Made by a program: the position numbers and the translations under genes
Assembly: GCA_963799895.1 (NCBI GenBank)
Contig: CAWCYR010000019.1
Coordinates: 31,608 to 95,607 of the forward strand
Reading direction: 5' to 3'
Length of the DNA: 64,000 nucleotides
From: an uncultured Thermoleophilia bacterium
GTDB lineage: Bacteria > Actinomycetota > Thermoleophilia > Gaiellales > Gaiellaceae
Shown here: positions 16,501-31,968 of the stretch, piece after piece
Layout: the number at the start of each line of letters is the position of its first letter
Numbering within the stretch: the stretch's first letter is position 1
The notes under the pieces: generated by a model
Told to the model about the DNA's origin: nothing
What the model saw: the letters and a program-made list of their open reading frames with translations, nothing else
Database searches by the model: none

Positions 16501-17030
16501 CGGCAACGTCGTCTCGGGCAACACCGGCTGGGGCGATCAACGTCGACGGACGGGACTCGGACGACGATCCAGGGCAACCTCGTCGGCACGAACGCGGCCG
16601 GAACCATCGCCGTTCCGAACGGGGCGAGGGCTGATCCTCCGAGAACGGCGACCAGCTCGGCGGCACCGCGGCCGGTGCCGGCAACGTGATCTCGGGCAAC
16701 CGCGGCCGGGGTGCAGGTCGCGGGCGCGAATGTCGTCGTCCAGGGCAACACTGGCAGAGTCGGCGGGACGGCTGGGTCCAACGGCACGACGGCGATCGGG
16801 TGAACCCAACGACGGCAACGGCGTGCGCCGGTCGGCAATCGCTTCGGGGAACCCTGAACGACGTCGAGCGTCGACCATACGGCGGCCCGGAAGGCAACCT
16901 TGACCGGCGCGGGCGCCAACACGATCGCGAACAACAGCAAGGGCGTCCTGCGCGATTCAACAGTGCACGTCGGAGGCACGTCGTCGCCCACGAACACGAG
17001 CGAGTGGCGTGCTCACGCGCGCCGACAATC
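10574..17030 (+). pseudogene. N-terminal half of a giant secreted protein locus: two CSLREA-type parallel beta-helix modules, reading frame repeatedly broken
   Basis: Possible start at ATG 10574 (MGSKRLMARTF), followed by frame changes to ~11150. A largely intact frame runs 11150-14385 (ORF 10994..16903). It carries NDCSLRSAI at ~11251-11280 and dozens of NxISGNxxxGI / GNxIGT beta-helix rungs. From ~14385 to ~17030 recognisable rungs hop between all three frames; examples are GVFGPGVTGNVIKGNLIGTDDAG, GGTGVGNVISGNANAGVYLDT and GNKIGGTTAGERNVVSGNGGYGVQS. A second NDCTLRSAI motif is at ~14911-14937. Confidence 0.6.
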
Positions 17031-20000
17031 CAGCGCAACTCGATCTACGGCAATTCCGGGCTCGGCATCGACCTCGGCGATGACGGAATCACCGCGAACG
17101 ACGCCGGCGACGGCGACTCGGGCGCGAGCAACCTGCAGAACTACCCGGTCCTCACGCTGGCGCAGCCGGTCTCGGGCAACGCCACGCAGGTGATCGGGTC
17201 GCTCGACAGCGCGCCGAACACGAGCTACCGCATCGATTTCTACGACAACGCCGCCTGCCCGGCCGGCAACGGCCAGGGGAAGACGTGGATCGGCTGGGCG
17301 CAGCAGTCGACCGACGCCAACGGCCACCTGGACATCGACACCGGCACCGGGCTCACCGCGGGCGGCGTGAGCGTCGGCGACGCGATCACGGCAACGGCCA
17401 CCGACCCGAGCGGCAACACGTCGGAGTTCTCGGGCTGCCAGACGGTCTCGTCGCCGGCCGGCCTCTCGAACGTCAACTTCACAGGGACTGCGGCCGTCGA
17501 CGCCGGCGCGCAGACGGTGCCGACTGGGAGCATCGACCTGTCCGCGCTCTCGCAGGGCAACGGCACGACGAGCGGCACCGCGCTCGGCGGCATCCCGATC
17601 GAGAGGATGGCGCTCGGCGGCATCGCGCTCGGCGGCATCGCACTGGGCGGGATCGGCATCACACCGCAGCTGTTGAACAGCACGCTCGGCGGCGTGCACC
17701 TCGCCGACATCCCGCTGAACCAGACGGGTGGTTGGCCGGCATACCTTGCGAGCGTCCCCGCGCTGGCGCCGCTCGCCGGCCGCCCGCTCGACAGCGTGAC
17801 GCTCAGCGATGTGCTCACGCTCAACCCGGCGTCGGCGAGCTCTGTGCACATCGGCGACGTCGACCTGAGCCACACGGCGCTCGGCGGGATCGCCCTCGGC
17901 GGGATCGCGCTCGGACCGCTGACGCTCAGCCAGATCCCGCTCCGGACCGGGGCGACCACCGCGGCGCAGAACGCCGCCGACTGGTGCGCAGCAATCAGGA
18001 GCGTCCCCGGGTTCACGTGCAGCCCGTCGGACGGGACGGCAATTGCCAATGACACGCTCATCACCTGGGCGCTGCGCGGCCTGCCGCTGGATCAGATCCA
18101 GCTGCCGAACGGCCAGACCGGCCTCGACGGCGCGCCGCTCGCCGGTCACACCAGCACCGGCACGACCGCGGGCGTCGCGCTGGGAGGGATCGCCCTGGGC
18201 GGGATCGCGCTCGGCGGCATCGACCTGCACGGCACCGCGCTCGGCGGCATCGCGCTGGGTGGCATCGCGCTGGGCGGCATTGGCACGCAGGGCACGGCGC
18301 TGGGCGGCATCGCGCTGGGCGGCATCCATCTGCCTCAGAGCAGTCTTCAGGGCACCGCGCTCGGCGGGATCGCCCTCGGCGGCATCAACTTCCAGAGCAC
18401 CGCGCTCGGCGGGATCGCGCTCGGCGGGATCGCGCTCGGCGGCATCAACCTCCAGAGCTCGGCGCTCGGCGGGATCGCGCTCGGCGGGATCGCCCCGGGC
18501 GTTCTCAGCCAGCTCGTCGACTGCTCGAACAACTACTGCGCCGATACGTCCAAGACGCTCGCCCAGGTGCAGCGTGACAACAAGTTCAAGGCCGGCTCGA
18601 CGCTTGCGCTGCTCGTCAACGGCCTGCCGACGGCGACGCTGAACCAGTTCAAGCTCCAGGATCTCGGGACGTACAACGGCGTGACGATCGCCCAGCTGAT
18701 CGCCGCCCTGGTCAACCCGAACTCGCTGAATCTCGCCGACCTCGTCGCCTCGCTGCAGAACGCGGGCCTCACGCTCAACGACCTGCTCGCCGTCTTGCCT
18801 CCTGGCTTCACGCTGCACGACCTCTTCGCGGCGATCCTCGGCCGCGCGGGCTACGACTGGAGCAATCTCGACCTCTCGACCTTCCCGCTCGCGAAGTACG
18901 CGACGTCGGGCGGCGACATCACGTACACGTCGACCTTCACGGCGACGGGCGGCAGTGGGCAGCGGGCAGTCACGGTCACGGCCGCGCTGCCCACGGGCGG
19001 GATCTACGTCGCCGGATCCGGCCAGATCACACCCGGGGTGCCGGGCAATGCGATCACGCCTCAAATCGGCGCGACGGCGCTGACGTTCAACCCGACTGTC
19101 ACGATCGGGACGCCGTACACACTGACGTGGCACGTGCGCGCCCCGCTGAACCTCGGGACGTACTCCGTGCAGGCAAACGTCATCACGGCCGGCATGGCGT
19201 CGCCGACCATGAACACGGTTTCGACGATCGTCGGCCAGACGTTCGACAGCACCCCGTTGACGCCGGCGGACGACCAGAACAACGATCCGAACAATCCGCC
19301 GCAGATCGCGCCCGGCACGCTGACGATCTCGCAGCTTCTGCGCGGCGACACGGACTACTACAAGGTGCCCATCGGGACGTTCGGGTCGCGCACGGTGATC
19401 ACCCTCAGCCACGTCCCGGCCGGGTCGGACTACGACCTGACGGTCGGCGGCCCGCCGGCCCCACGCCTGCGCGGCGCCGCGCTCGGCGGGATCCCGCTGA
19501 CGAACACTCAGCTGCCCGACCAGCAGCCGGATCTCAACCAGCAGTCGCAGCCGCTGCCGCCCGAGACGCTGCAGGACGTCCCGTCGAGCCCGCTCACGGC
19601 GAACGGCAACGTCATCCGCGGCCAGTCGGACAACCGGGGCAACGCGGACGAGCAGATCACGCTCATCTCGGAGGGCGAGGCCGGCTTCTACACGATCCAG
19701 GTCTCGAACTACGCCGGCACGGATGCGAACCAGCCGTACGTGCTCGAGGTCGAGCAGAGCGCGCCGCCGAACCTCGGCGTCTGCACGCCGCGCACGATCG
19801 CGAACACCAACGGGACGGCGCCCGCCCCCACGCCGGCGCTGAGCGCGAACACCAACACCTTGTTCCTGGTCGACGAGGCGCGGCTTCGCTCGACACCGGG
19901 GTTCGCCGCCGCCGACGTCAATACCCTGATGAGCAAGCTGTCGGCACTCGCCGGCCGCAGCGACCTCGGCGTTACCGGCTCCGTCGTCCACGTCGAGGCA

Positions 20001-23000
20001 AACAGCACCGTCGTCTCGGCGTACAACAACTGGGATCAGCTGCCGTGCAACCCGCAGCGGGCGAACGACGTCGTGCGTGCGATCGGCAGCTACCTCGACA
20101 CGCTGCAGGCGACGGCCCCGAACGTGAAGTACATCGTCCTGGTGGGCGGTGACGACATCATCCCGTTCGCGCGCGTCCCCGACGAGACGCAGATCGCGAA
20201 CGAGATCGGCTACGCCGACCAGCTCGGGACGACCAACAACGAGTACCGCGGGTCGACCGGCCAGGGCTTCCTGCTCACCGACGACGTCTGGACCGACAAG
20301 GGTGCACCCGACTTCCTCGGGCATGAGCTCTTCGTCCCCGAGCTCGCCTCCGGCCGCCTGGTCGAGAAGCCGGCAGACATGTCGAAGACGATCGACGCCT
20401 TCACGAGCGCCAACGGGCTGATGACGCCGGCCGCCTCGCTCGTGTCGGGCTACGACTTCCTGAGCGACGGCGCCACGACCGTCAACGCGCCGTTCGCGAC
20501 GGCCTTCGGCGCCAACGCGAAGACGCTGATCAACAACACCTGGACGAACACCCAGCTGCTCGCCGGGATGTTCCCGACGTCGGGCACGGCGCCGAACATG
20601 CTGTCGATCAACGCGCACTTCGACCATCACCGCCTGCTCCCCGCGAACGAGAACGCCGCAGGCACCCAGACAAACCTGGTGACCACGACCGACATCACGT
20701 CGCGCGGCGTGAACGCGATGGCGGGCAAGCTCGGCTTCTCGATGGGCTGCCACTCCGGCCTCGTCGTCTCGGACGCGATCTTCAGCGCACAGCCGATCCT
20801 CGCCTCTGACTGGGGTCAGGCGATGCTGGGCACCGGCGCGTTCGGCTGGATCGGCAATACCGGCTACGGACTGGGCGACACCGTCGACGTCGCCTACTCC
20901 GAGCGGCTCAGCGCCATCTTCGCGGGCAAGCTCGACGGCTCGCTGACCGTCGGCCAGGCCGTCGCCGCAGCCAAGCAGGACTACATCAGCACGCTTGGCG
21001 TGATCAGCCCGTACGACGCCAAGGTCGTCAACGAGTGGAACCTCTACGGCCTGCCGATGCTTCGGCTCGGGTCCGGCATCCCGCCGGCGCCGCCGCCGCC
21101 GCCGCCGCTCCACACCGACCCGGCCACGAACCTGCAGGCAACGTCGTTCGACGTCTCGCCGGCGTTCACGCCGGTGACGATCGCGGGCGTCGGCAAGTAC
21201 TACAAGGCCGACAACGGCATCCAGTCGACGCCGCGGCGCCCGCTCGAGCCGCTCGTCTCGCTCGACGTCACCGAACCCACGAGTGTCGGGGTCGCGCACG
21301 GCGCGTTCCTGCGGCTGCTGAACTCGCCGGTCAACGACGAAACGCCGTTCACCGGAGTGTTCAGCCAGGTCGTCACCGACACGTCGGCGGACCAGGCCAA
21401 CCTGACCGGTGTGACGGCGTTCCCGAGCAAGCCGCAGAGCATCTCGACCTTCACGGGCATCACGGGCCAGCGGCAGCGGCTCAACCTGATCGTCGGCCTC
21501 TTCCGCTCGAGCGGCCCGATCTTCGGCGTCAACGGCGTGCAGCGGAAATACTCAAGGCTCTCGGGCGATGTCCTGTACTCGAGCTCGTCCGACTGGACGC
21601 CGCCGACGCTCGGAGAGCTCCAGGCGGTCAGCGTTCCGAACACAAGCCCGGCGACCGTCGGCTTCGCCATCGACGCAAGCGACCAGGCGCCCGGCATCGT
21701 CAAGGCCGTCAACGTCCTCTATCGCGACTGCGCCGGTACCTGGAGGACCGTCGACCTGTCGAACGCCAGCGGAACGCGCTGGACGGGCGCGGGCCAGGTC
21801 GGGGCCGGCTGCACCAACATCGACTACTACGTGCAGGCCGCCGACAACGCCGGCAACGTCGCCGTGTCGAGCAAGAAGGTCCAGTTCGAGCCGGTTGCCG
21901 TTCCGGCATCGTCCGGGAACCTGAGCGGCGGCGCCAGCGGCGCCACGCTCCAGAACGGCTGGTACAAGGGCGCCGTCAACGTCACCCTGACGCTCACCGG
22001 CGGAAGCTCGCCGCTTCAGTACAGCCTCGACGGGGCGGAGTTCAAGGACTACACCGGCGCGATCCCGGTGAGCACCGACGGGCTTCACACGGTCGACGGA
22101 AAGACGAAGGATGGCTCAGCAACGACGCAGGTCGTCTTCGGCATCGACACGAAGGCGCCGATCATCACCGTCAACGCGCCGGGGAACGGCGCGACGTACT
22201 CCGTGGGACAGCAGGTCAACATCGACTACTACTGCAGCGACTCCGGTTCCGGGATCGCCAGCGGCTGCACCAGCACGCCGGCGAAGGGCGCGCTGCTCAA
22301 CACGAGCACGCCCGGCACGTTCACGTTCAAGGTCAACGCGGCGGTCGACCAGGTCGGCAACAGCTCCGGCGACAAGACGGTCACCTACACGGTCGGCTAC
22401 CGGAAGGTTCTGTTCACCTCGACGCGCACCGGCAACGGCGATGTCTACTCGATGAACCTCGACGGCTCCGGCGTTACCCAGTTGACGAACAGCCCTGCGA
22501 TCGACGCCTTGCCGGAGTACTCACCCGACGGCCAGCGGATCATCTTCACGAGCAGCCGGACGGGCAACGGCGACATCTATGCGATGAACACCGACGGTAC
22601 CGGGCTCGTTCAGCTGACGAACTCGAACGGCGTCGAGGCGCTCGGCGAGTACTCGCCCGACGGCAAGAAGATCGTGTACACGAGCACGGTCCCCGGCAAC
22701 GTCGAGATCTACGTGATGAATGCCGACGGCACGAATCAGACGCGGCTCACGAACAACCCGGCGATCGACGCCGACCCGAGCTGGTCGCCGAACGGCAAGC
22801 AGATCGTGTTCGCCAGCAACCGCGTCGCGTCGAACAACTACGAGCTCTACGTCATGAATGCCGACGGCACCGGGACACCGACGCGGCTCACGAACTCCGC
22901 CGGCTTCGACGGTGAGCCGGAGTGGTCGGCCGCGAACAACAAGATCGCGTTCACGAGTGCCCGCAACGGCAACAACGACATCTACGTCGTCAACCCGGAC

Positions 23001-23198
23001 GGCACCGGACTGACGCGCCTGACGACGAGCACGGGGAACGACTCGGCAGCGTTCTGGTCGGTCGACGGGACGCAGATCCTCTTCCAGAGCGACCGCTCCG
23101 GCTCGGCCGGCACGGACGTGTACTCGATGACGCCGACGGGTGCGAACCAGACGCGTCGCACCACGAACGCGGCGTTCGACGGCACGCCGGCCTGGTAG
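16686..23198 (+). CDS. C-terminal, frame-intact part of the giant secreted protein
   Basis: The ORF is protein-like from ~17030 onward. In order: end of a beta-helix module ([40 protein letters not shown] ... [13 protein letters not shown]); ALGGI repeats; a PPC-like domain ([10 protein letters not shown]...YVLEVEQ); a peptidase-like domain ([30 protein letters not shown]); a PAPPPPPP linker; Ig-like domains ([27 protein letters not shown]); and six PD40 repeats. The first ~115 codons of the ORF are out-of-frame read-through. Confidence 0.75.
   Translation: [2170 protein letters not shown]
17580..18494 (+). repeat. In-frame 15-nt tandem units encoding ALGGI pentapeptides (about twenty units in three clusters)
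   Basis: GCGCTCGGCGG(C/G)ATC units at 17580-17660, ~17875-17915 and 18174-18494. The translation reads [40 protein letters not shown]... Confidence 0.9.
19340..19755 (+). other. Pre-peptidase C-terminal (PPC)-like beta-sandwich domain inside the giant protein
   Basis: [38 protein letters not shown] ... [38 protein letters not shown] resembles bacterial PPC domains. The assignment is by motif recognition only. Confidence 0.45.
19850..21070 (+). other. Clan-CD (gingipain C25-like) cysteine-peptidase-like domain inside the giant protein
   Basis: Ordered motifs: [28 protein letters not shown], a His candidate in [11 protein letters not shown] and a Cys candidate in [11 protein letters not shown], then [11 protein letters not shown]. 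This His-then-Cys order is typical of clan CD peptidases. Confidence 0.4.
22405..23195 (+). other. Six TolB-type PD40 / WD40-like beta-propeller repeats at the C-terminus of the giant protein
   Basis: Repeats of the form FTS(T/S)RTGNGD(V/I)Y(S/A)MN.DG(S/T)G..QLTNS....(E/S)(Y/W)SPDG..I. Confidence 0.8.
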
Positions 23199-23318
23199 CG
23201 ATTCACCCGTAGCAGGCGATAGAACGCCGCCGCCAGTCGGCGCAAAATCCCCTGAACGGCCTGGGGGAGGGCTTCGCTGTCTGCACGCACCTACCGGCAC
23301 CTGCTTCTCGGCGCCGCC

Positions 23319-25421
23319 ATGGTTCTCACGTTTGCCGCCGTCGTCGCGCCGGCTCACGCCGCCCTGACCGGGACGCTGGAGATCTGCAAGTCATCCGCAA
23401 ATGGGATGTCCGGCCGCGCCTTCGGCTACTCCGTGAACGGGGGCGCGCCCGTAACGGTGAAGGGCGGCCGCTGCTCGGGGCCGATCGCGGCGGCCGCCGG
23501 CTCGGTCGCGGTCACTGAGCTGCCGAGCAGTCCGGCGACCGACGTCGGCTCCGTCAGCGTCCGCCCGAGCGCACGTGCCCTCGGGGTGTCGGGACGAACC
23601 GCGACGGTCACGGTGGTCGCCGGCAGCACGACGTCGAACGAGACGCTCGTGACGTTCACCAACGTTCCGGCGGGCGGGACCATGGGCGACCTGAAGATCT
23701 GCAAGTTCTCGGCGACGCCCGGCTTCCTCGGACGCTCGTACACGTTCCATGTGAACGGCGGTCCCGGTATCAGCGCCGAGGCGAACGATCCGTCGTCGCC
23801 GCCCGAGGCGTGGTCGTGCCGCCTGGCCGGGTCGTTCCCCGTCGGCTCGCTCGTGACCATCAGCGAAGACGTGCCTGCGGGTCAGGAGGTTGCGTGGATC
23901 GACGCCGACCCGTCACAGCAGCTCGCGAACTTCGATACCCACGCAGGGTCGGCGCTGTACACGATCGGCCCGGGCATGACCGTGGCGCTCTTCGACAATG
24001 AGCCGTTACCGCCCGCCGACTTCGGCACCGGCTATCTCGAGGTCTGCAAGGACGCCGCCCGCCTCGCGGACGGCCGGCCCGATCCCACCGTGCTCGGCCA
24101 GCCCTTCGACTTCACGGTCGAGACGCCGTCGGACACGCAGACGGCGACCGTGCTCGGTGGCCAGTGCTCCGGCCCGCTGAACGTGCTCGCCGGGCCTGTG
24201 ACTGTGACGGAGCAGCCGTCCCCCGGGTATCAGTTGGACGAGGTATTCACGATCCCCGGAGGACGGCTGCTGGGCACGACCCAGGTCGAGGTGCCCGCGT
24301 CGACGAGCACCAACGACGAGACGCAGGTGCACTTCGTCAACGAGCACGTGCGCGGCCAGCTGAAGGTCTGCAAGACGCTGGCCGCCGGCAGCCCGCTCGG
24401 CGTACTCAATCCGTTCCGCTTCGACGTCCTCGACATCGGCAGCGGAACCGAGGCGCGCCGCGTCGAGGTGACCGGGGTGGCGGGGACGACGCAGTGCGTG
24501 ATCGCCGGCTCGTTCCCGACGGGAGACACGGTCGTCGTGACGGAGGATCTGCCGCCGAGCGCGTTTACCGCGGCAAGCGGCCCCGGGTGCGCGCCTGACG
24601 TGGCCGGCAACCTCGTCTGCAGCACGACGATCGCGCCCGGCATCAACACCGTCATGGTGACGAATACGGCGCAGGGCCAGCTCGAGATCTGCAAGAAGGT
24701 CAGTGACCGGCTCGAGGATCCGGAGTCCGGCCATCTCTTTGTCTTCCGGATCGACGGCGCGCAACTACGGATCCGGCCGGGCACGTGCTCGCCGCCGCAG
24801 CTCGTCTCCGTCGGCGCGCACACGGTGGTCGAGAGCTCGGAGGCGAATTACGAGCTTGACCCGAACTCGGCCGGGCGCGGCATCGCCGTCATCCCGTCCG
24901 GCGCCGAGGCGAGCCGGAACGCGTCGACGCGAACAGTCACGGTCAACGTGCCATGGGCCGGCGACCCGGCTCAGCCCGGCGGCGAGGTGGTCGTCTCGTA
25001 CACGAACCGCATAAAGCGTGCGCTGTTCAAGGTCTGCAAGCTCGTCGCCCCCGGCTCCACCGACGTTCTCGGGCCGCTCGGGTTCGACTTCCAGCTCACG
25101 ACGACGGATCCGGCGCACCCGGGCCCGTACTTCATCCGCGGGCTGATGATGAACGAGTGCTCCCTCTTCCGCGACGACTTCGGCAACGTGAGCATCCCCG
25201 TCATCAATGCCGCGGGCCAGAACAACTTTGCCGAGATCCTCGAGCTGATGGACGCGCAGAATCCCGGCCTCTTCACGGTCTCGAAAATCACGTTCCAGGG
25301 GGCGATCGCGTCCCAGTCGTTCTGCTTCCCAGGAACGCCGCCGACGTGCCTGCCGGTCGCCGACCTGTTCCCCGGACCGACGGTGAACGTCGTCACGTTC
25401 ACGAACCGGACGGGCTCCTAA
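23319..25421 (+). CDS. Secreted repeat protein with six ~100-120-aa Cys-containing beta-sandwich-like modules
   Basis: 700-aa intact ORF. Each module starts L-x-(I/V)-C-K (LEICK, LKICK, LEVCK, LKVCK, LEICK, FKVCK). Each has a second Cys ~30-45 residues later (for example RCSGP, QCSGP) and most end in a V-x-(F/V)-x-N beta-strand. The true start may lie upstream (see findings). Confidence 0.75.
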   Translation: MVLTFAAVVAPAHAALTGTLEICKSSANGMSGRAFGYSVNGGAPVTVKGGRCSGPIAAAAGSVAVTELPSSPATDVGSVSVRPSARALGVSGRTATVTVVAGSTTSNETLVTFTNVPAGGTMGDLKICKFSATPGFLGRSYTFHVNGGPGISAEANDPSSPPEAWSCRLAGSFPVGSLVTISEDVPAGQEVAWIDADPSQQLANFDTHAGSALYTIGPGMTVALFDNEPLPPADFGTGYLEVCKDAARLADGRPDPTVLGQPFDFTVETPSDTQTATVLGGQCSGPLNVLAGPVTVTEQPSPGYQLDEVFTIPGGRLLGTTQVEVPASTSTNDETQVHFVNEHVRGQLKVCKTLAAGSPLGVLNPFRFDVLDIGSGTEARRVEVTGVAGTTQCVIAGSFPTGDTVVVTEDLPPSAFTAASGPGCAPDVAGNLVCSTTIAPGINTVMVTNTAQGQLEICKKVSDRLEDPESGHLFVFRIDGAQLRIRPGTCSPPQLVSVGAHTVVESSEANYELDPNSAGRGIAVIPSGAEASRNASTRTVTVNVPWAGDPAQPGGEVVVSYTNRIKRALFKVCKLVAPGSTDVLGPLGFDFQLTTTDPAHPGPYFIRGLMMNECSLFRDDFGNVSIPVINAAGQNNFAEILELMDAQNPGLFTVSKITFQGAIASQSFCFPGTPPTCLPVADLFPGPTVNVVTFTNRTGS

Positions 25422-25427
25422 GCGCGC

Positions 25428-25443
25428 GGCGCGGGAACGCGCC
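25428..25443. terminator. GC hairpin with GGAA tetraloop between convergent genes
   Basis: GGCGCG-GGAA-CGCGCC lies in the 29-nt gap between the stop codons of 23319..25421 (+) and 25451..25972 (-). Confidence 0.35.
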
Positions 25444-25450
25444 CGGCCGG

Positions 25451-25972
25451 TCAGTGAACCTGGATGTTCCCGCCTGAGATGGTCCCGGTACCGCAGTTCG
25501 CGTACGGGGGCGTAGGCAGTGCGTCGGGGGTGACCATGACGCAGATGGAGTCGTTCGCCCCAGGCTCGCCGTTGTCGGCGACCGTCACCTCGAAGTGACC
25601 CGTGCCGGCGCCGTGCTGGTCGCGGTACGTCCCGCGGAACGTCGCCGTGTTCGTCCCCATGCTTTCGAAGACCTGGTCGAGCTCTGCGCAGGTCGTGCCC
25701 GTGAAGATCGAGCCTGCGTCCGGTTGGACGTTGCCGTGGATCGCCACACCAGCTGCGTCGTCGTTGAACTGCAACTGCCCGTTGTAGAACTGGGCGGAGG
25801 AGACGCCGCCGCTCGTGACCGTCCGGCACTTCGCGCTGAACCCGAAGTTCGCCGTGTGGCCCGGAACCAGCGAAGACATGGTTCCGCCGCCGTTGACCTG
25901 GTCGCAGCCGGTGAGGACGAGGACCGAGCCAGCTAGGGCAAGCCCTCCGAGAATGAGCCGGCGCCGTCGCAC
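25451..25972 (-). CDS. Hypothetical lipoprotein
   Basis: MRRRRLILGGLALAGSVLVLTGCDQ... combines a signal peptide with a lipobox (L-T-G-C). The 173-aa ORF is intact. Confidence 0.7.
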   Translation of the reverse strand: MRRRRLILGGLALAGSVLVLTGCDQVNGGGTMSSLVPGHTANFGFSAKCRTVTSGGVSSAQFYNGQLQFNDDAAGVAIHGNVQPDAGSIFTGTTCAELDQVFESMGTNTATFRGTYRDQHGAGTGHFEVTVADNGEPGANDSICVMVTPDALPTPPYANCGTGTISGGNIQVH

Positions 25973-26110: not shown

Positions 26111-26478
26111 GGGGGCGACCTGGTCTCGACGTGGTCGTAACTCCGGCAGAGCTGCAAGCCGAGGTCTCCGGTCGGCCTCGTTAAACAACCGGAAACCAAC
26201 GCAAGTGCGAACGATGAGTCCGCACTCGCTCTCGCTGCCTAACCCGTAGCAGAGCGCATCGCTCCGAGCTCGGCCCGTGGCTCGGGACAGCGGTGTCAGA
26301 AAACGGGCTCGGCGCCAACGGAAAGTCACTCGCCCGCGGCGCGACACTGAAGGAGGACTAGCCCGGCAGCAGGTCGGCCGTTCACCGGCCGCCGGGCGAA
26401 ACCAAAGGGCGGCCTAAGCTTGTAGATGTTCTGTCAGGAGCGTCCGCGGACGCGGGTTCGATTCCCGCCGCCTCCACC
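26111..26478 (+). ncRNA. ssrA: Transfer-messenger RNA (tmRNA, SsrA)
   Basis: 5' GGGGGCGACCTGGTCTCGACG... The acceptor stem GGGGGCG pairs with CGCCTCC, including the G3:U wobble that is the alanine identity element. T-arm is GCGGG-TTCGATT-CCCGC with discriminator A. The tag ORF is (GCA AGT) GCG AAC GAT GAG TCC GCA CTC GCT CTC GCT GCC TAA, at 26201/26207-26242, encoding (AS)ANDESALALAA. The terminal CCA is only partly encoded (ACC then T). Confidence 0.93.
26451..26477 (+). repeat. ssrA 3'-end core (att-like copy 1, inside the tmRNA gene)
   Basis: CGCGGGTTCGATTCCCGCCGCCTCCAC. It is identical to 28461-28487 and similar to 27247-27273 and 29110-29137. Confidence 0.9.
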
Positions 26479-26545
26479 TCCTGACCCGCGATGCCATCCG
26501 ACCTCAAGTGAGGTCGGTGGCCGCTGGTTACTCTCCGGCCGGCGG

Positions 26546-27235
26546 ATGTCGACGCGCACTCGGGAGATCACCGCGGCTTCGAAGCGGGCGGCCAGTTCCG
26601 CCCTCTTTCGCTCCGCCAGCGCCGGCAAGAAGGCGGGCGCGTCGAGTGCGAGGGTGAGCGCCGAGCTTGTTCACGCAACGGGTCGGCTCGTGAACCGGGC
26701 GGTCGATCAGATGCTACTCGGAGATACCCGCGTCGTTTCGGCGGCGGAGGGGAGGAAACTGCTGGAAGGCACCGAGCAGAACGAGGCGCTCGCCGAAGAC
26801 ATCCAGCGGGTGATCGTGCTCTCGCTTCCCGTGATCCGCTCACTTGCCCGCGGAGCGAAGCTCGTCAAGCTGCCCTGGGTGATCCTCGCCACCAGCGCGG
26901 TCTCGGTCGGCGTCGCCGTTCGCAGCGGGGTGCGCGAGATCCAGGTGATCTCGTCATTGCTCGCACACCGCATCGAAGCGGAAACCGGAGCGCCGGCCGA
27001 TCCTGATCTGGTCAAGAAGCTGGCGGTCGACCTCTACCTGCACCCCAGGCGCAAGCCCGACCTTCGAGACGACAAGCTGCGCCTCGTTCGGCTTAGTCGC
27101 AAGTGGGCGTTCGGCGGGGCTTTCGGACGCAAGACCGAGAAGCGTGCTGCGAACGCGCTGGCAGCAGCCGAGCGGCTTGACGCCAAGGGCGTGGCCGCGC
27201 GCTGGACGGAGATTCGGCGGTTGCGCTCACGTTGA
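26546..27235 (+). CDS. Hypothetical protein (229 aa) in the first islet after ssrA
   Basis: ORF 26426..27235 overlaps the tmRNA. The first internal ATG is at 26546 (MSTRTREITAASKRAA...). One predicted hydrophobic segment (LPWVILATSAVSVGVAV). No family recognised. Confidence 0.5.
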   Translation: MSTRTREITAASKRAASSALFRSASAGKKAGASSARVSAELVHATGRLVNRAVDQMLLGDTRVVSAAEGRKLLEGTEQNEALAEDIQRVIVLSLPVIRSLARGAKLVKLPWVILATSAVSVGVAVRSGVREIQVISSLLAHRIEAETGAPADPDLVKKLAVDLYLHPRRKPDLRDDKLRLVRLSRKWAFGGAFGRKTEKRAANALAAAERLDAKGVAARWTEIRRLRSR

Positions 27236-27246
27236 GCGCAGCAGAC

Positions 27247-27273
27247 TCGGATTCGATCCCGGCCGCCTCCATG
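27247..27273 (+). repeat. Degenerate copy of the ssrA 3' end (att-like copy 2)
   Basis: CTCGGATTCGATCCCGGCCGCCTCCAT matches the 27-nt ssrA core at 22 of 27 positions. It starts 11 nt after the stop of 26546..27235. Confidence 0.7.
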
Positions 27274-27601
27274 TTCGGCTCGCGGAGTTCGAGATGCTCG
27301 CGTGCCGGACGAAGAGTCAAGAATCGCGTACGCCTATCTCGTTCCGTTGGATCCGTACTTCCCGGAGGACGGCTCACACGCCACGCTCGTGCGCGGAGCA
27401 TCGGTGCTGAAGCCGCCTTGAATCGCAGCGTCGAGGTCATGCAAGAGTCGATCGAGCTCCGTCTCGGCGCTCGCATCCGCGGTTCTCGATCGGCCCAGAG
27501 GTCGATTACGTCACGCAGGGGCGGCAACCAACCCGGACCTCGAGCAGCTCCGCGGGCTGCGCTGGAACTAGGCCCGACCGCGCACGCCAATCCTCGTAAG
27601 C

Positions 27602-28453
27602 TTGGCGTTCGTGAGGCTCGTGGTCACCGGAGCGAGCGGGAAGGCTGGTCGGGCAGTTGTCCGTGATCTGGTCGAGCATGAGCACGACGTACTGGGTGTC
27701 GACTTGGTCTCGCCGCCAGAATCGCCTGGGGCGTTTCTGCTCGCCGATCTGACCGACTTCGCCCAAGCGGTCGAGTGCCTGGCGGGTGTGGAGGCCGTCG
27801 TTCACCTGGCAGCGATTCCTGCCCCGGGAATCCACACCGAGGAGGCGACTTTTCGGACGAACATGCTGAGCACCTACAACGTCTGCGAGGCGGCGCGACT
27901 GCTCGGTCTGCGACGAGTTGTCTGGGCGTCGAGCGAGACGATCCTCGGGCTCCCGTTCGAGCGGGAACAACCGGCGTACGCGCCGATCGACGAAGAGCAC
28001 CCGGCGTATCCCGAGTCGAGCTACGCGCTTTCGAAGCTGCTCGCAGAAGAGCTTGGCCGTCAGTTGTACCGCTGGTCCGGCACGCCGTTCGTCGCGCTTC
28101 GCTTCTCGAACATCATGGAACCCGAGGATTACGAGCGGTTTCCTTCTTTCTGGAGCGACGCGACGCTGCGGCGATGGAATCTGTGGGGCTACGTCGACGC
28201 TCGCGACGTCGCCCAGAGCTGCAGGCTCGCGCTCACCGCCGATGTGGGCGCAGAGCACTTCATCGTCGCCGCAGCGGACACCGTCATGAATCGTCCGAGC
28301 CGGCAGCTGATGGCTGAGATTTACCCCTCGGTGCCCTGTCGGCTCACTACCGGCGACTTCGACACGCTTCTCTCGATCGAGAAGGCCCGGAAGCTACTGG
28401 GCTACGAGCCGGTGTGGTCTTGGCGCGATCACATCGCCGACCGAACCGATTGA
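27602..28453 (+). CDS. NAD-dependent epimerase/dehydratase (extended SDR) family protein
   Basis: Rossmann motif VVTGASGKAGRAVV and catalytic YALSK. The 283-aa ORF is intact. A/T-ending codons are noticeably more frequent than in the flanking core genes. Confidence 0.8.
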   Translation: MAFVRLVVTGASGKAGRAVVRDLVEHEHDVLGVDLVSPPESPGAFLLADLTDFAQAVECLAGVEAVVHLAAIPAPGIHTEEATFRTNMLSTYNVCEAARLLGLRRVVWASSETILGLPFEREQPAYAPIDEEHPAYPESSYALSKLLAEELGRQLYRWSGTPFVALRFSNIMEPEDYERFPSFWSDATLRRWNLWGYVDARDVAQSCRLALTADVGAEHFIVAAADTVMNRPSRQLMAEIYPSVPCRLTTGDFDTLLSIEKARKLLGYEPVWSWRDHIADRTD

Positions 28454-28487
28454 AACGTTGCGCGGGTTCGATTCCCGCCGCCTCCAC
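28446..28487 (+). repeat. Perfect copy of the ssrA 3' end plus a 15-nt conserved left flank (att-like copy 3)
   Basis: 28461-28487 is identical to 26451-26477. The preceding CCGATTGAAACGTTG includes the epimerase stop codon and recurs as CCGATTGAAATATTG before copy 4. Confidence 0.9.
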
Positions 28488-28511
28488 TACGGACGATGAC
28501 CGGGCGGATCT

Positions 28512-28949
28512 TCAGGTGCGCTCGGTCAGCGCCCTCTCGATCCGGTCGAGCCGCACAACGATCTCGGCCAGCGCCTCCGTCGACGCGTCGGCGTCCCCGC
28601 GGCCGGGCCGTTCCTCACGCGACCGCGTGACGAACCCACTGGTGATCGCCGCCGTGATGACGCTGAGAAATCCGATCCCACCAAGCATGACGAACGTCGC
28701 GACGATTCTGCCGGCGACGCTCGTCGGAACCGCGTCGCCGTAGCCGACCGTCGTCACCGTCTGGATTGCCCACCAGAGGCCGAGGCCGATCGACGGGAAA
28801 TTGTGGGGATCGGCCACCCTCATCAGGAGGCCTGCCGCCACGGTGATCACGATGGTCACCGTGGCGATGATGACCGCGGCCTGACCGGGCCTCGTGGCGC
28901 GGGCAAGCCTGCGCTCGAGCCAGTGCTCGACTCTGGTCTCCTCGGCCAT
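28512..28949 (-). CDS. Minimal two-TM potassium channel (KcsA-like pore, TVGYGD filter)
   Basis: MAEETRVEHWLERRL...GLWWAIQTVTTVGYGDAVPTSVAGRIVATFVMLGGIGFL... The start at ATG 28949 was chosen by alignment with the paralogue at 35174..35653. The longer ORF (to 29264) runs through att-like copy 4. Confidence 0.8.
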   Translation of the reverse strand: MAEETRVEHWLERRLARATRPGQAAVIIATVTIVITVAAGLLMRVADPHNFPSIGLGLWWAIQTVTTVGYGDAVPTSVAGRIVATFVMLGGIGFLSVITAAITSGFVTRSREERPGRGDADASTEALAEIVVRLDRIERALTERT

Positions 28950-29094
28950 CCAGGAGGACGTTCGCGCCGCTCGCGGCCGGTCCTGCTGTCGCGATCCGGG
29001 CAGCGCTATGAGACGGGGCCGGACTGGCATCCCGCCAGACGCAGGCGGTTGCGTAGTAGCTGTCGACGGCGGTTCCATGACCGGGCCGCCGCCA

Positions 29095-29137
29095 CCGATT
29101 GAAATATTGCGCCGGGTCCGATTCCCGCGGCCTGCTT
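29095..29137 (+). repeat. Degenerate copy of the ssrA 3' end with the same left flank as copy 3 (att-like copy 4)
   Basis: CCGATTGAAATATTG followed by CGCCGGGTCCGATTCCCGCGGCCTGCTT. About 80% identity to the ssrA core with a 1-nt gap. Confidence 0.65.
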
Positions 29138-29211
29138 CGAGCTCACTTCGGCCACGTTCACGTCGTTCTCGCATCCAAGGATTCGACCCCGTCGAGGGTA
29201 GGGTCGCGGCC

Positions 29212-29613
29212 ATGCCGTTTTCGCTCAGAAACCTCAAGCACGACCTGGAAGATGTCGGTTCCAATTTCGACGGTGTGTCGGACCTGGAGTTTCGCCTGGC
29301 TACCGATGCGTTGAAACTCGAGCAGTCCGGCTTGTCTTACCAGCGCATCCCGCCTGACTACCGGTTCCCGTACGGACACACGCACAAGGAGCAGGAAGAG
29401 GTGTACGTCGTCGTACGCGGGAGCGGACGGATGAAGCTCGACGACGAAATCGTCGAGCTCAGAGAGTGGGACGCCGTCCGCGTCGCACCCGGTACGTGGC
29501 GAGGCTACGAAGCAGGGCCCGAGGGCCTCGAGATCATCGTGATCGGAGCGCCCAGCCTCGGCGAAAATCGGCGTGCTGACGTCGACGGGCAGCGCGATTG
29601 GTGGACTGACTAG
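29212..29613 (+). CDS. Cupin-domain protein
   Basis: Internal ATG 29212 of ORF 28894..29613. PYGHTHKEQEEVYVVVRGSGRMKLDDEIVELREWDAVRVAPGTWRGYEAG is a cupin_2-type beta-barrel motif. Confidence 0.7.
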   Translation: MPFSLRNLKHDLEDVGSNFDGVSDLEFRLATDALKLEQSGLSYQRIPPDYRFPYGHTHKEQEEVYVVVRGSGRMKLDDEIVELREWDAVRVAPGTWRGYEAGPEGLEIIVIGAPSLGENRRADVDGQRDWWTD

Positions 29614-29655
29614 CGTCCGCCGTGTCCGCGGTCAGGCCTTGCGATCCGAGAAACG

Positions 29656-30079
29656 TCACGAGGTCTGCAAGCCGGGAAAGACAGCCCGCAGGCCTGCCTC
29701 GACACAGGCACGGTCGTCGTCACCGCTCGCGCCACTCGCTCCGGCTGCGCCCAGCACGGTCTCGCCGCTTCGGATCAACACGGAGCCCGGCCCCGGAATG
29801 AGTGGTAGCCGCGTGAGGCTGCTGACCGCGTCGAAGAATCCCTCGTGGTTCTCACGGCCGGCGGCAAGCAGCTCGCCGTCGCGGTGCCAGAGCGCCGTTC
29901 CGGCTGCCTTCGCTTCGGCGATCTGCGCCGAGAGCGGGAACGCGCCGTCCATACGGCCGAGCGCGACGAGCGTGTCCGCCCTCGTCGACGACCGCGACCG
30001 CGATCTTCCAGCCGTTGGCGAGCGCATGGTCGTTCGCGGCTGCGATGAGGACATGGGCCTGCGCGAGGCTCAGCGGCAT
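29656..30079 (-). CDS. GlcG/HbpS-like (DUF336) haem-binding family protein, one frame change near 29975
   Basis: The N-terminus MPLSLAQAHVLIAAANDHALANGWKIAVAVVDEGG is in ORF 29852..30079. It continues as DTLVALGRMDGAFPLSAQIAEAKAAGTA...VLGAAGASGASGDDDRACVEAGL in ORF 29656..30054. Confidence 0.65.
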
Positions 30080-30131
30080 CGCCGCAACGTAGCCGCAACA
30101 GCCGCGGCGGAGTCATCCGCGGCGGTGCAGC

Positions 30132-30512
30132 TCAGCGCGTGAAGCCGCCGAGGTGGGACGACTTGACCGCGAGCGGCACGCCGGCCCCGGCCTGGCGCTC
30201 CAGCATTTCGAGGACTCCGCTGCCCGGCGTACCGAACACCTGGATGCTCGTCGTCGCGGCGACCGTCTCCGCATATGCGGCGGCCGCGCGCTCGGCAACG
30301 ACCTCCATGTGAAACGCCATCGACTCGGCATCGGGGTGGATCTGGACAACGGCGACCTCGGTGCCCTCATGGTTGACGTACTCGTTGAATGCGATCAGCC
30401 GCGGTTCGTTCGCCTCGACGAAATCGACGAGGCCAGGCACTCGCTTCCTCTCGTCTGCGAGCTTCCCTGGCTTGAGCCGGTTGGTCGCGATGAAGATGAA
30501 TGGGCTCGACTC
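30132..30512 (-). CDS. Dimeric alpha/beta-barrel (ABM-like) protein, start codon unclear
   Basis: The ORF track starts at GTG 30440. The same frame is open and protein-like upstream (ESSPFIFIATNRLKPGKLADERKRV...) back to a GAG codon at 30512-30510, which is preceded by AAAAGGAGG at 30525-30517. Confidence 0.5.
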   Translation of the reverse strand, partial: ESSPFIFIATNRLKPGKLADERKRVPGLVDFVEANEPRLIAFNEYVNHEGTEVAVVQIHPDAESMAFHMEVVAERAAAAYAETVAATTSIQVFGTPGSGVLEMLERQAGAGVPLAVKSSHLGGFTR

Positions 30513-30556
30513 GCCGCCTCCTTTTGGTTGAGTTCCTCGCCCGGTAGCCTTGATCG

Positions 30557-30985
30557 GTGGAGCCCCGCGTCGATGTAATCACGTTGGCCGTCGAGGACCT
30601 TGAGCGGGCTCTACGGTTCTATCGCGAGGGGCTCGGCTTCGAGTCGAGCGGCGTCATCGGAACGCAATGGACGGACGAGGAATCCGGCGCGAACGGCGCC
30701 GTCGCGGTGTTCAAGTTCGCGAGTGGGTTGCTCCTCAGCCTGTACCCGCGCAGTGACCTCGCCAAGGACGCAGCGATTCCCGCCGGTCCAGCGCGCCCCG
30801 GCGAGTTCAGCCTGGGACAACTCGTGCAAAGCCGCGCCGAGGTGGATGCGTTGATCGAGAAGGCCGAAGCCGCCGGGGCGGCCGTTACCGCGCCGCGCGA
30901 CAGGCCGTGGGGCATCTACTCCGGCTACTTCCGCGACCTGGACGGCCACCTTTGGGAGATCATCTGGAACCCGAATAGAGACTGA
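30557..30985 (+). CDS. VOC (glyoxalase/bleomycin-resistance/dioxygenase) family protein
   Basis: 142 aa. VDVITLAVEDLERALRFYREGLGFE ... YFRDLDGHLWEIIWNP is a typical VOC fold signature. Confidence 0.8.
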   Translation: MEPRVDVITLAVEDLERALRFYREGLGFESSGVIGTQWTDEESGANGAVAVFKFASGLLLSLYPRSDLAKDAAIPAGPARPGEFSLGQLVQSRAEVDALIEKAEAAGAAVTAPRDRPWGIYSGYFRDLDGHLWEIIWNPNRD

Positions 30986-31161
30986 TCGACCGGGGGCTCT
31001 GACTCCGGGTGTGCGATCACGGAATGGTCCGCGTCGCGCTCGGGACGGATGACGACGCCCTAGGCCACGGGTGGCGATGGTAATCGGGGCGGTCCGAGAG
31101 CCGGTCCGCTAGCGAGGGTGGAAAGATCCGCGGCTCGAGCTCTTGTCCACTGACCGCGTAG

Positions 31162-31907
31162 GGAGCAGCAGCTGGCCGGCCCGACGTCGGATCGGCTCCT
31201 CGGGCCGCTTTCGCGGGGCTCCTCGCGGCGATCGGCCTGTTCGTCGCCGGAGCCGCCGTGTCGGTCACCCACGGCGTGCAGGAGCTCCGCAACCCCGAGC
31301 CCGCGTCCGACTTCGTCGTCGGCTATGTCGTGCTCGCGTTCTCGTTCATCGTCGAAGGGATCTCGTTCGCGCGATCTGTGCGGCAGACGAGGCCCGACGC
31401 TGAGCTTTTCGAGCGAGACCTGATCGCGCAGGTCATGGCGACATCCGACTCGACGTTGCGCGCGGTCTTCGCCGAGGACGCCGCGGCACTGATCGGGATC
31501 GTGATTGCCGCCGTCGCTCTGGGCGCGCACGAGCTGACCGGCTCCGCCGTCCCGGACGCCCTCGAATCGATTCTCATCGGCCTGCTGCTGGGGGCCGTCG
31601 CGCTCTTCCTGTTCAACCGGAACCGGCAGTTCCTCGTCGGCCAGGAGGCCGATCCGCGCGTGCGCGCGGCCGTGGTGCGTGCGCTGCTCAGCGAGCCCGA
31701 GGTCGCACGCGTCACGTATCTGCGGTTGGAGATCGTCGGCCCGCGGATGGTCTCGGTCGTCGGAGCTGTCGACCCCACCGGCGACGACACCGAGTCGCAC
31801 TCGCCGTCCGGCTGCGGGCGCTCGAGGGGAAGCTCGACGCGTCGCCCGCGGTCGCCGGGACCGTGCTGAGCCTGTCCGCGCCCGACGAGCCTTCGCTCGC
31901 GGAGTGA
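31162..31907 (+). pseudogene. Cation diffusion facilitator (CDF) family transporter fragment, 5'-truncated and frameshifted near 31800
   Basis: In-frame TAG at 31159-31161. Only the C-terminal two thirds are present (LAAIGLFVAGAAVSVTHGVQELRNPEP...VVLAFSFIVEGISFARSVRQ...RVTYLRLEIVGPRM). The tail LAVRLRALEGKLDASPAVAGTVLSLSAPDEPSLAE* is in another frame and ends at 31907. No upstream sequence encodes TM1-2. Confidence 0.6.
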
Positions 31908-31968
31908 GCGCTCCTGCTGCTCGCCTGGTCCGTTTGCCAGGCCACTGAAAACAAGCAACAATCGTGAC

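Follow-up and report, generated by a model that had tools for sequence, protein, structure and literature searches.

Why does the 3' end of a transfer-messenger RNA (tmRNA) gene occur four times in a row, with single genes lying between the copies? The question is raised by ssrA, the tmRNA gene, in a 64,000-nucleotide (nt) stretch of an uncultured Thermoleophilia bacterium of the Gaiellaceae (assembly GCA_963799895.1, contig CAWCYR010000019.1, positions 31,608 to 95,607), hereafter the window. A first-pass annotation of this sequence had proposed either successive integrations followed by loss of the integrases or an unknown mechanism that captures single genes. Our analysis argues for integration. 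With a probability of about 0.85, the four repeats are attachment (att) cores that small integrative elements left behind when they integrated one after another at the T-arm/acceptor end of ssrA. The elements responsible are of the tyrosine-integrase type and target this T-arm/acceptor part, and ssrA is the integration target (attB), at present the attL side of the array. Stacked integrations with later integrase loss are supported by the arrays of related genomes, by integrases and integrase remnants adjoining cores there, and by polymorphism of the segments between cores, the islets. An unknown capture mechanism is not needed; its weaker form would be the mobilisation in trans of islets that lack an integrase.

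The tmRNA gene is of the one-piece type, with concordant ARAGORN and Rfam calls. Its last 27 nt, CGCGGGTTCGATTCCCGCCGCCTCCAC, have two exact occurrences in the window, one within ssrA (core c1) and one at core c3, and gave zero matches in all of 100 shuffled sequences. According to tmRNA alignments and the sequence, c1 spans the 5' T-stem, the T-loop, the T-stem, the 3' strand of the acceptor and the first bases of the tail. Exact matches, a repeat search and a core profile, trained solely on 60 independent sites in other contigs and then run on the window, taken together give four copies, which lie on the + strand within 2.7 kb downstream of ssrA. The next best profile match has an E value of 0.89, and the profile search finds no fifth core copy anywhere in the 64 kb; a T-loop-like 13-mer at 29179-29191, pointed out earlier as a weaker copy, is not significant in this search and was rejected as noise. 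The coordinates first proposed for c1, c3 and c4 stand and those of c2 have to be shifted by one base (27246-27272, not 27247-27273). Core c3 closes islet 2 as its attR and bounds islet 3 on the left. Core c4 is the oldest recognisable attR; it matches the 27-mer at 20 of 27 positions ungapped (29111-29137) or at 22 of 28 with a 1-nt gap from 29110, its decay consisting of a 1-nt insertion and of mutations in the acceptor half. In c2 the acceptor half is intact, the T-arm half is mutated and the GATTGAAA motif is missing, and it reads as an older scar or as the scar of a different element family.

Cores c3 and c4 also share a 5' extension that does not belong to ssrA, CGATTGAAA-nn-TTG, which the first-pass annotation had overlooked. 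In the window CGATTGAAA occurs at these two cores only, two occurrences against 0.16 expected. It is part of a 14-nt motif, CGATTGAAAnnTTG, that adjoins both cores on their left and is lacking at c2; at c3, the TGA of the motif is the stop codon of the islet 2 gene, an NAD-dependent epimerase/dehydratase of the short-chain dehydrogenase/reductase (SDR) superfamily. The same motif was found next to cores in 98 metagenome and 34 genome contigs by a scan for the motif together with the start of the core. From the metagenome side, 80 of the 98 matching contigs were fetched and examined; on the genome side, all 34 species-representative metagenome-assembled genomes (MAGs) were examined over an 8-kb stretch each (loci are given L numbers below). 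Decayed motif variants, for example GATTCAAGTCTTG and GGTTGAAATCTTG, adjoin other cores of these loci. In the elements that bear an integrase, a second CGATTGAAA stands to the right of the core, in the P' arm and inside a hairpin, so that an excised attP would have the motif on both sides of its core. The motif is hence a putative arm or extended-core site of the integrase. The motif was also considered as the 3' half of a tRNA with its anticodon arm, a candidate dropped after analysis by hand, as the canonical register of the anticodon loop does not fit. The motif-plus-core pattern has zero matches in IMG/VR and the bare 25-nt core has more than 120, which shows no more than that this tmRNA end is a common phage att sequence.

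The related loci show which enzymes belong to these sites. Genes for tyrosine recombinases lie directly to the right of a core on the opposite strand, the C-terminus of the protein abutting or overlapping the core, and this position is directly after the tmRNA in L047/L017 and after a core in L080/L020, L045, L124, L127 and L130. Pfam assigns PF00589 to those of L130 (E = 4e-22), L080 (3e-23) and L047 (2e-21), and in L045 and L127 the homologous proteins, placed likewise beside the core, have the HxxRH...GH...Y motif, an assignment that is motif-based and outside the Pfam-checked set. Together the integrases form three types, 28-40% identical to each other. Truncated C-terminal remnants of integrases occupy the same position in L088, L013, L062, L040, L085 and L140 and are direct evidence of decay by deletion. 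A complete element of 3.9 kb is present in L130, where the tmRNA is followed by the integrase, a replication protein (Rep; PF23343, RepSA-like), a secreted-protein cargo and a motif-core acting as attR, and a second element class has a D5_N/DUF5906 primase adjoining the core. An all-against-all clustering, aimed at a recurrent protein that could be a recombinase not recognised as such, returned nothing beyond cargo families and a ~180-amino-acid (aa) cupin, and a pattern search for the resolvase catalytic motif was blank over 557 kb of related loci and the window.

In the window itself, no integrase was found in the 64 kb by pattern searches for the HxxRH and resolvase motifs, by tblastn with three related integrases or by a six-frame search with an integrase hidden Markov model (HMM) built from six sequences. 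A weak HMM match to the right of c2 (27096-27623, - strand, full-sequence E = 0.23) was dismissed, since only a low-information N-terminal stretch aligned.

Separately from the integrases, a conserved hairpin of ~50 nt starts 1-3 nt past the core at 16 distinct sites in the related loci (for example L057 3104-3150 and 4680-4726, L010 4778-4830, L042 101-150 and L119 3198-3250). Covariation is seen in its outer stem of 8-12 base pairs, where 8 positions have 2-3 standard pair types; AAGUC/CG and CAUGA(C/U)GAC are unpaired and do not vary, and a second GC hairpin follows ~30 nt further. In L010 the hairpin adjoins a D5_N/DUF5906 primase gene. It has no match in Rfam and may be a P'-arm structure, an origin or an RNA.

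The arrangement seen in the window is a common one among its relatives. All but one of the 34 MAGs, a Chloroflexota, are labelled Thermoleophilia, Gaiellaceae or 'uncultured Actinomycetes' (Actinomycetota). A normal tmRNA call was obtained within the 8-kb stretch for 12 of the 34 MAG loci, and in all 12 the gene is upstream of the cores and co-oriented with them; in the related long contigs, the cores are likewise clustered downstream of the tmRNA. Arrays of 2-5 cores are common, with up to 5 cores in 6 kb and islets of 0.6-5.7 kb. The sequence directly to the left of the motif is unrelated between contigs, and the genes found there are a diverse cargo including GNAT proteins, alpha/beta hydrolases, epimerases, an FGE-sulfatase, MFS transporters and an MmeI-type enzyme, among others. 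The nearest of these genes is co-oriented with ssrA in 45 cases and opposite in 22, and at 8 of 89 sites its stop codon is the TGA within the motif. Single-gene islets between perfect cores are seen for example in L117 (868 nt), L123, L134 and L138. Furthermore, the arrays turn over in modules: L042, L082 and L024 share one 4.2-kb islet without an integrase, at 99.5% identity over its whole length between the cores, and its neighbours differ on both sides. Inside an ssrA-array islet of L017 (2343-2468, - strand), there is also a match to the EGFOA RNA of Rfam (RF02955), at 58.5 bits against a gathering score of 37.7.

The window's own array is polymorphic, and the other outcome named at first as speaking against integration, identical content in relatives with no polymorphism, is not what the comparison shows. 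L002, 98.7% identical to the window, is the same strain. In L001, an identity of 96% extends from ssrA over islet 1, c2, c3, the K+ channel gene of islet 3 and c4 as far as the cation-efflux gene, except that 550 nt with two 102-aa open reading frames (ORFs) stand in for window positions 27395-28444, the stretch with the SDR gene; the right breakpoint is exactly at the motif. The window retains the start region of the first of these ORFs, in which the initiating ATG has become ATC and after which the remainder of the ORF is replaced. L134, a Thermoleophilia MAG whose tmRNA is 96.9% identical to that of the window and encodes the tag ASANDESALPLAA, lacks islet 1, both the 229-aa gene and c2 being missing. 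Here the SDR segment begins 26 nt after ssrA and matches window positions 27468-29005 at 95.8%, as compared to 85-89% for the flanking chromosomal genes. Instead of 29006-31948 there are 890 nt of other sequence, without the cupin, HbpS-like, glyoxalase and cation-efflux genes and without c4, and synteny is back at the cyclase gene (31949, 85%). Based on the L001 and L134 comparisons, the variable and mostly low-GC3 region (GC3, GC content at third codon positions) runs from 26479 to ~31948, past c4, and islet 2 of the window is a hybrid whose left boundary is a deletion or illegitimate junction and not c2. The probable joint, formed by deletion or illegitimate recombination, is the junction segment given in the table.

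Features of the ssrA array and of the adjoining variable region (window coordinates)
Feature	Position	Strand	Evidence and remarks
ssrA (tmRNA gene), tag ANDESALALAA	26111-26478 (end 26478/9)	+	ARAGORN; Rfam RF00023, 179.7 bits
c1, att core	26451-26477	+	exact 27-nt identity block of ssrA; profile E=1.1e-7
Islet 1 cargo, 229-aa hypothetical	26546-27235	+	no Pfam domain; GC3 0.80
c2, degenerate core	27246-27272	+	22/27 identity; profile E=0.0038; kept in L001
5' remnant of 102-aa ORF, intact in L001	27323-27394	+	L001 alignment ends 27394
Junction segment, L001-type to L134-type sequence	27395-27467	.	outside L001 (ends 27394) and L134 (starts 27468) alignments; probable deletion or illegitimate-recombination joint
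SDR segment of islet 2	27468-28446	+	L134, L072, L083 and L050 alignments
Islet 2 gene, NAD-dependent epimerase/dehydratase (SDR)	27602-28453	+	Pfam PF01370, 1e-27; GC3 0.78
Element-side motif CGATTGAAACGTTG, directly left of c3	28447-28460	+	2 window occurrences vs 0.16 expected
c3, perfect 27-nt core	28461-28487	+	exact match; profile E=3e-15
Islet 3 cargo, 145-aa K+ channel with two transmembrane segments (Ion_trans_2)	28512-28949	-	Pfam; GC3 0.88
c4 with CGATTGAAATATTG motif	29096-29137	+	repeat search; profile E=1.3e-9; kept in L001, absent from L134
Continued variable region, no recognisable core	29138-31948	.	L134 comparison; GC3 0.71-0.89
Cupin	29212-29613	+	Pfam
Frameshifted HbpS-like gene (HbpS-like/GlcG)	29656-30079	-	Pfam
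102-aa ORF	30132-30440	-	gene call
Glyoxalase	30557-30985	+	Pfam
Cation-efflux fragment	31258-31869	+	Pfam

The SDR segment is a horizontally exchanged cargo unit. L072 shares the unit (27501-28484) at 93.8% identity, against just 82% between its tmRNA and that of the window. It stands behind a cupin in L083, at 88.9% identity from 27606 on, and just its last ~90 nt are left in L050, adjoining a core. Across L134, L072, L083 and L050 the unit thus shows nested left truncations, its left ends being variable and its right end fixed. The cupin of the window is also found again adjoining motif-cores, in L053 and L136.

The three islets of the window measure 0.65-1.2 kb, and their ORF and Pfam content agrees with the one gene per interval described at first, a 229-aa hypothetical, an SDR epimerase and a K+ channel on the opposite strand. 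These genes had also been said to have more A/T-ending codons than the others. Measured against a GC3 of 0.919 +/- 0.030 for the 29 other genes of the window, most islet genes, at 0.77-0.80, are 3-5 standard deviations lower; the claim holds for the 229-aa and SDR genes, and the K+ channel gene is only mildly deviant. The latter has the same gene call in L001 and L002 and is present in L134 at 90% aa identity. The 229-aa protein, for which an exact look-up returned no record, belongs to a large Thermoleophilia-type family that is found elsewhere in ordinary, unrelated chromosomal contexts. Its gene was considered as a conserved neighbour of ssrA and rejected as such, homologues of 64-86% identity lying in unrelated contexts without a tmRNA.

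Beyond c4, the segment 29138-31948 is probably older accreted cargo. Its HbpS-like/GlcG gene is split over two frames, the Pfam match covering only residues 3-37 of the 29852-30079 ORF and the rest lying in the 29656-30054 frame; it is intact (140 aa) in L001 and L002, and the split reflects either a pseudogene with a frameshift or an indel of the assembly. Between the window and L002 there are 48 gap openings over two aligned blocks. Positions 31068-31647 (580 nt, cation-efflux region) are missing from L002 and L001 has the full 337-aa Cation_efflux gene, so that the lesions of this gene seem to differ between the window and L002. A second variable region, 10994-25972, is found on the opposite flank of ssrA. 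It encodes very large proteins without Pfam domains (1969, 2170 and 700 aa) and a 173-aa lipoprotein, diverges much faster than ssrA and the islets (81% in L001 and 89% in L134, as compared to 96%), and ~4.2 kb of it are replaced by 1.8 kb in L134.

Taken as a mechanism, the attP of an element would join the motif CGATTGAAAnnTTG to a duplicate of the final ~27 nt of ssrA and to a P' arm with the second CGATTGAAA, and the gene of the element's tyrosine integrase would adjoin the P'-arm side. Recombination in or near the T-loop, a crossover position that we infer, would restore ssrA with the copy of the element and displace the earlier ssrA 3' end to the far end of the element, directly behind the motif. 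Repeated rounds would stack the elements, and later deletions would strip the integrase and Rep side while cargo and right-hand att site stay. In the window all integrases have been lost, c3 being presumably the youngest displaced end and c4 the oldest, and c2 would be an internal scar carried along with the 229-aa gene. The simplest history would begin with an L134-like state. A composite of the L001 type (229-aa gene, c2, two small ORFs and a core) would then have integrated at ssrA, and there would finally have been a deletion with one endpoint within the first small ORF and the other in the left end of the SDR element.

Several observations weigh against this account. No Rep or excisionase was found in the window, nor a detectable integrase pseudogene beside any of its cores, and the left boundaries of the polymorphic segments (27394 and 27468) are not at cores. 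The exactness of the motif is partly by construction, the collection scans having demanded an exact match. Integration at this locus is deduced from the homology of the sites, not observed. The weakest part is c2, which is more degenerate than c3, the opposite of a simple order with the newest core next to ssrA, and which lacks the motif. Moreover, a c2-like fragment exists away from any tmRNA: in L007 (1676-1702) an ssrA-like fragment (CGCGGGCTCGATTCCCGCGGCGTCCAC, 24/27) lies 10 nt past the stop of an orthologue of the 229-aa gene, with an MFS gene and not ssrA upstream and no tmRNA near the fragment, and homology with the window reaches precisely to where c2 ends. No such fragment accompanies the closer orthologues in L008 and L009. 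Together these features of c2 require one assumption more, either that an element was composite or that a second family of elements was involved, and c2 would be either an old internal scar that travels with the 229-aa gene or the site of another family.

Instead of being relics, the integrase-less islets could be still-mobile cassettes of the cis-mobilizable type, each consisting of cargo and a compact att site and excised and inserted in trans by an integrase that is specific for ssrA and whose gene lies at another place in the genome or on a co-resident element with integrase and Rep, ssrA serving as an integron-like capture platform. Such mobility has already been proposed for the ssrA islands of Dehalococcoides (PMC3146451), and it would suit the many single-gene islets between perfect cores in the relatives, the identity of c1 and c3 in sequence, the 99.5%-identical islet in differing array contexts, the movement of the SDR unit between lineages, and the 45:22 co-orientation with the motif TGA serving as a stop codon at eight sites. 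However, insertion beside an islet that itself stays in place, deletion, or homologous recombination in ssrA or in cores held in common can account for every one of the modular differences. The SDR unit has ragged left ends that no site defines, one adjacent gene in three lies on the opposite strand, neither a circular nor an attP junction turned up for any islet with cargo only, and the 64-kb window holds no integrase. The perfect cores, the orientation bias and the in-motif stops thus hint at compact cassette-like units and do not require that the islets be mobile, and we regard mobility in trans as unlikely. Quite doubtful, too, is its extension to the whole group, by which the ssrA 3' end of Thermoleophilia/Gaiellales would be a cassette platform where integrase-less, often single-gene units, each a gene directly followed by a ~41-nt site (CGATTGAAAnnTTG and the 27-nt tmRNA end), are captured, excised and exchanged in trans by the ssrA-specific tyrosine integrases of small elements with integrase and Rep; the result would be an array of accessory genes anchored on the tmRNA gene and similar to an integron.

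Two further explanations do without integration. In the first, the repeats could have a function as signals in RNA or DNA, such as T-arm-like terminators or sites of processing behind genes that share a transcript with ssrA, and could have spread through gene conversion or duplication in place. The T-arm forms a stable hairpin of GC pairs, c2 and c3 start 10 and 7 nt past + strand stop codons, and in the related loci there are sub-threshold matches to the Rfam tmRNA model (28-37 bits; L048 2151-2259, L021 1410-1464 and L030 1941-2056, in locus coordinates) in which a GGGGGCG- or GGCGGCG-like heptamer, 17-77 nt upstream, would pair as a 5' strand with the acceptor strand and form a mini tRNA-like helix. 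This pairing in displaced fragments may be chance in GC-rich DNA: the distance of the heptamer is variable, and GGCGGCG-like heptamers are common in DNA of 68% GC. No + strand gene precedes c4, the flanking cargo is unrelated and horizontally exchanged, integrases and their remnants adjoin the cores of the relatives, and local duplication leaves the element-side motif in ~130 unrelated contexts unexplained, all of which make this reading very improbable. The other explanation, a generic dispersed repeat of the repetitive extragenic palindromic (REP) type that merely resembles the ssrA end, had been named at first as what would overturn the integration hypothesis, and it is effectively refuted for the window, where there are only the four copies in a single orientation close behind ssrA and where, as in the related long contigs, the cores cluster behind the tmRNA. 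In its favour there is only L132 (CAVTYV010000006.1), a motif-core on a second large contig of the same MAG as L112 (CAVTYV010000004.1), with no tmRNA within the 8-kb stretch. L132, L089 and L118 resemble one another in the left flank (..GTGACGCAGAGGC..), and the end of the core is mutated in them (CCCCCAT or CGCCAT); this may point to a relic that became fixed at a locus other than ssrA, or to an artefact of binning or assembly.

Integration with later loss of the integrases makes ssrA a hotspot at which accessory genes turn over in Thermoleophilia and Gaiellaceae, Actinomycetota that abound in soil and of which hardly any have been cultured. Small and mostly integrase-less islets would be missed by standard island finders that need an integrase per island. 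The compact site, a 27-nt core with CGATTGAAAnnTTG, offers a sequence handle to harvest from metagenomes a flexible gene pool that includes hydrolases, transporters, regulators and defence genes such as the MmeI-type enzyme. The integrases may be of use as tools, their target being a universally conserved site, and, should the islets prove to be mobilised in trans, they would represent an integron-like capture system built on the tmRNA gene.

Islands that target tRNA and tmRNA genes are defined in Islander, a definition also associated with Williams (2002/2003). In Islander, an intact tDNA and displaced 3' fragments in direct orientation mark the ends of an island, an attP class with sites in the T-stem region and tandem arrays are recognised, ssrA is the most enriched target, and an integrase is required in each island of an array (Hudson et al. 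2015, PMC4383910). The window has the intact tmRNA gene with direct-orientation 3' fragments at 27246, 28461 and 29110 and a foreign or variable content (low GC3, the differences to L134 and L001, the SDR unit at 94% against the tmRNA at 82% in L072), whereas its three islets are without the integrase that is present at L047, L080, L130, L045 and L127. The Islander pipeline would therefore not call them. They also resemble the cis-mobilizable elements (CIMEs), described together with accretion for Streptococcus sites of integrative conjugative and integrative mobilizable elements and invoked in PMC3146451, which are att-flanked segments without recombination and transfer genes. Indeed, the c1-c2-c3-c4 intervals encode only the hypothetical, the SDR and the K+ channel, their sites match the family profile, and, like CIMEs, they are tandem with related elements and would derive from integrative elements by deletion; the window holds no helper element. 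In Prochlorococcus, the tycheposons, small elements that have a tyrosine recombinase, a replication module and cargo, integrate at tRNA genes and also at the tmRNA gene; newer ones push older ones deeper into the island and leave partial tRNAs and fragmented integrases scattered (Hackl et al., bioRxiv 10.1101/2020.12.28.424599). The same stacking and remnants at such genes are seen here, but host phylum, integrase and replication proteins differ by description, the latter being REP_ORF2-G2P/RepSA-like or D5_N/DUF5906 in our loci. Integron cassettes resemble the islets in their mostly single-gene arrays, a site close behind the gene that sometimes overlaps the stop codon, and a partial bias towards co-orientation. 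In contrast to integrons, there is no IntI, attI or attC-type imperfect palindrome, the sites are copies of the tmRNA end, a third of the adjacent genes are on the opposite strand and phage-type integrases adjoin the sites in the relatives.

The closest precedent is the ssrA-specific genomic island (ssrA-GI) system of Dehalococcoides, in which tandem islands behind ssrA are bounded by a 20-bp direct repeat with a conserved 15-bp non-ssrA motif upstream of each repeat, insertion into the T-loop was deduced, some islands without an integration module were proposed to be cis-mobilizable, and the integrase is DsiB, a CcrB-like serine recombinase encoded in a six-gene module beside attL (McMurdie et al. 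2011, PMC3146451). Both systems have tandem repeats of the ssrA 3' end with a non-ssrA motif upstream, here at c3, c4 and in ~130 related contigs, though not at c2. They differ in that the integrases associated with our sites are PF00589 tyrosine recombinases of at least three divergent types, with no DsiB module, that the repeat is 27 nt long and not 20 bp, that the motif is another sequence, that the hosts are Thermoleophilia/Gaiellaceae, and that the islets are far smaller (0.65-1.2 kb in the window, 0.6-5.7 kb in the relatives). The phenomenon is hence a well-known one, and what is new here is its occurrence in a little-studied host group and in the form of unusually small islets.

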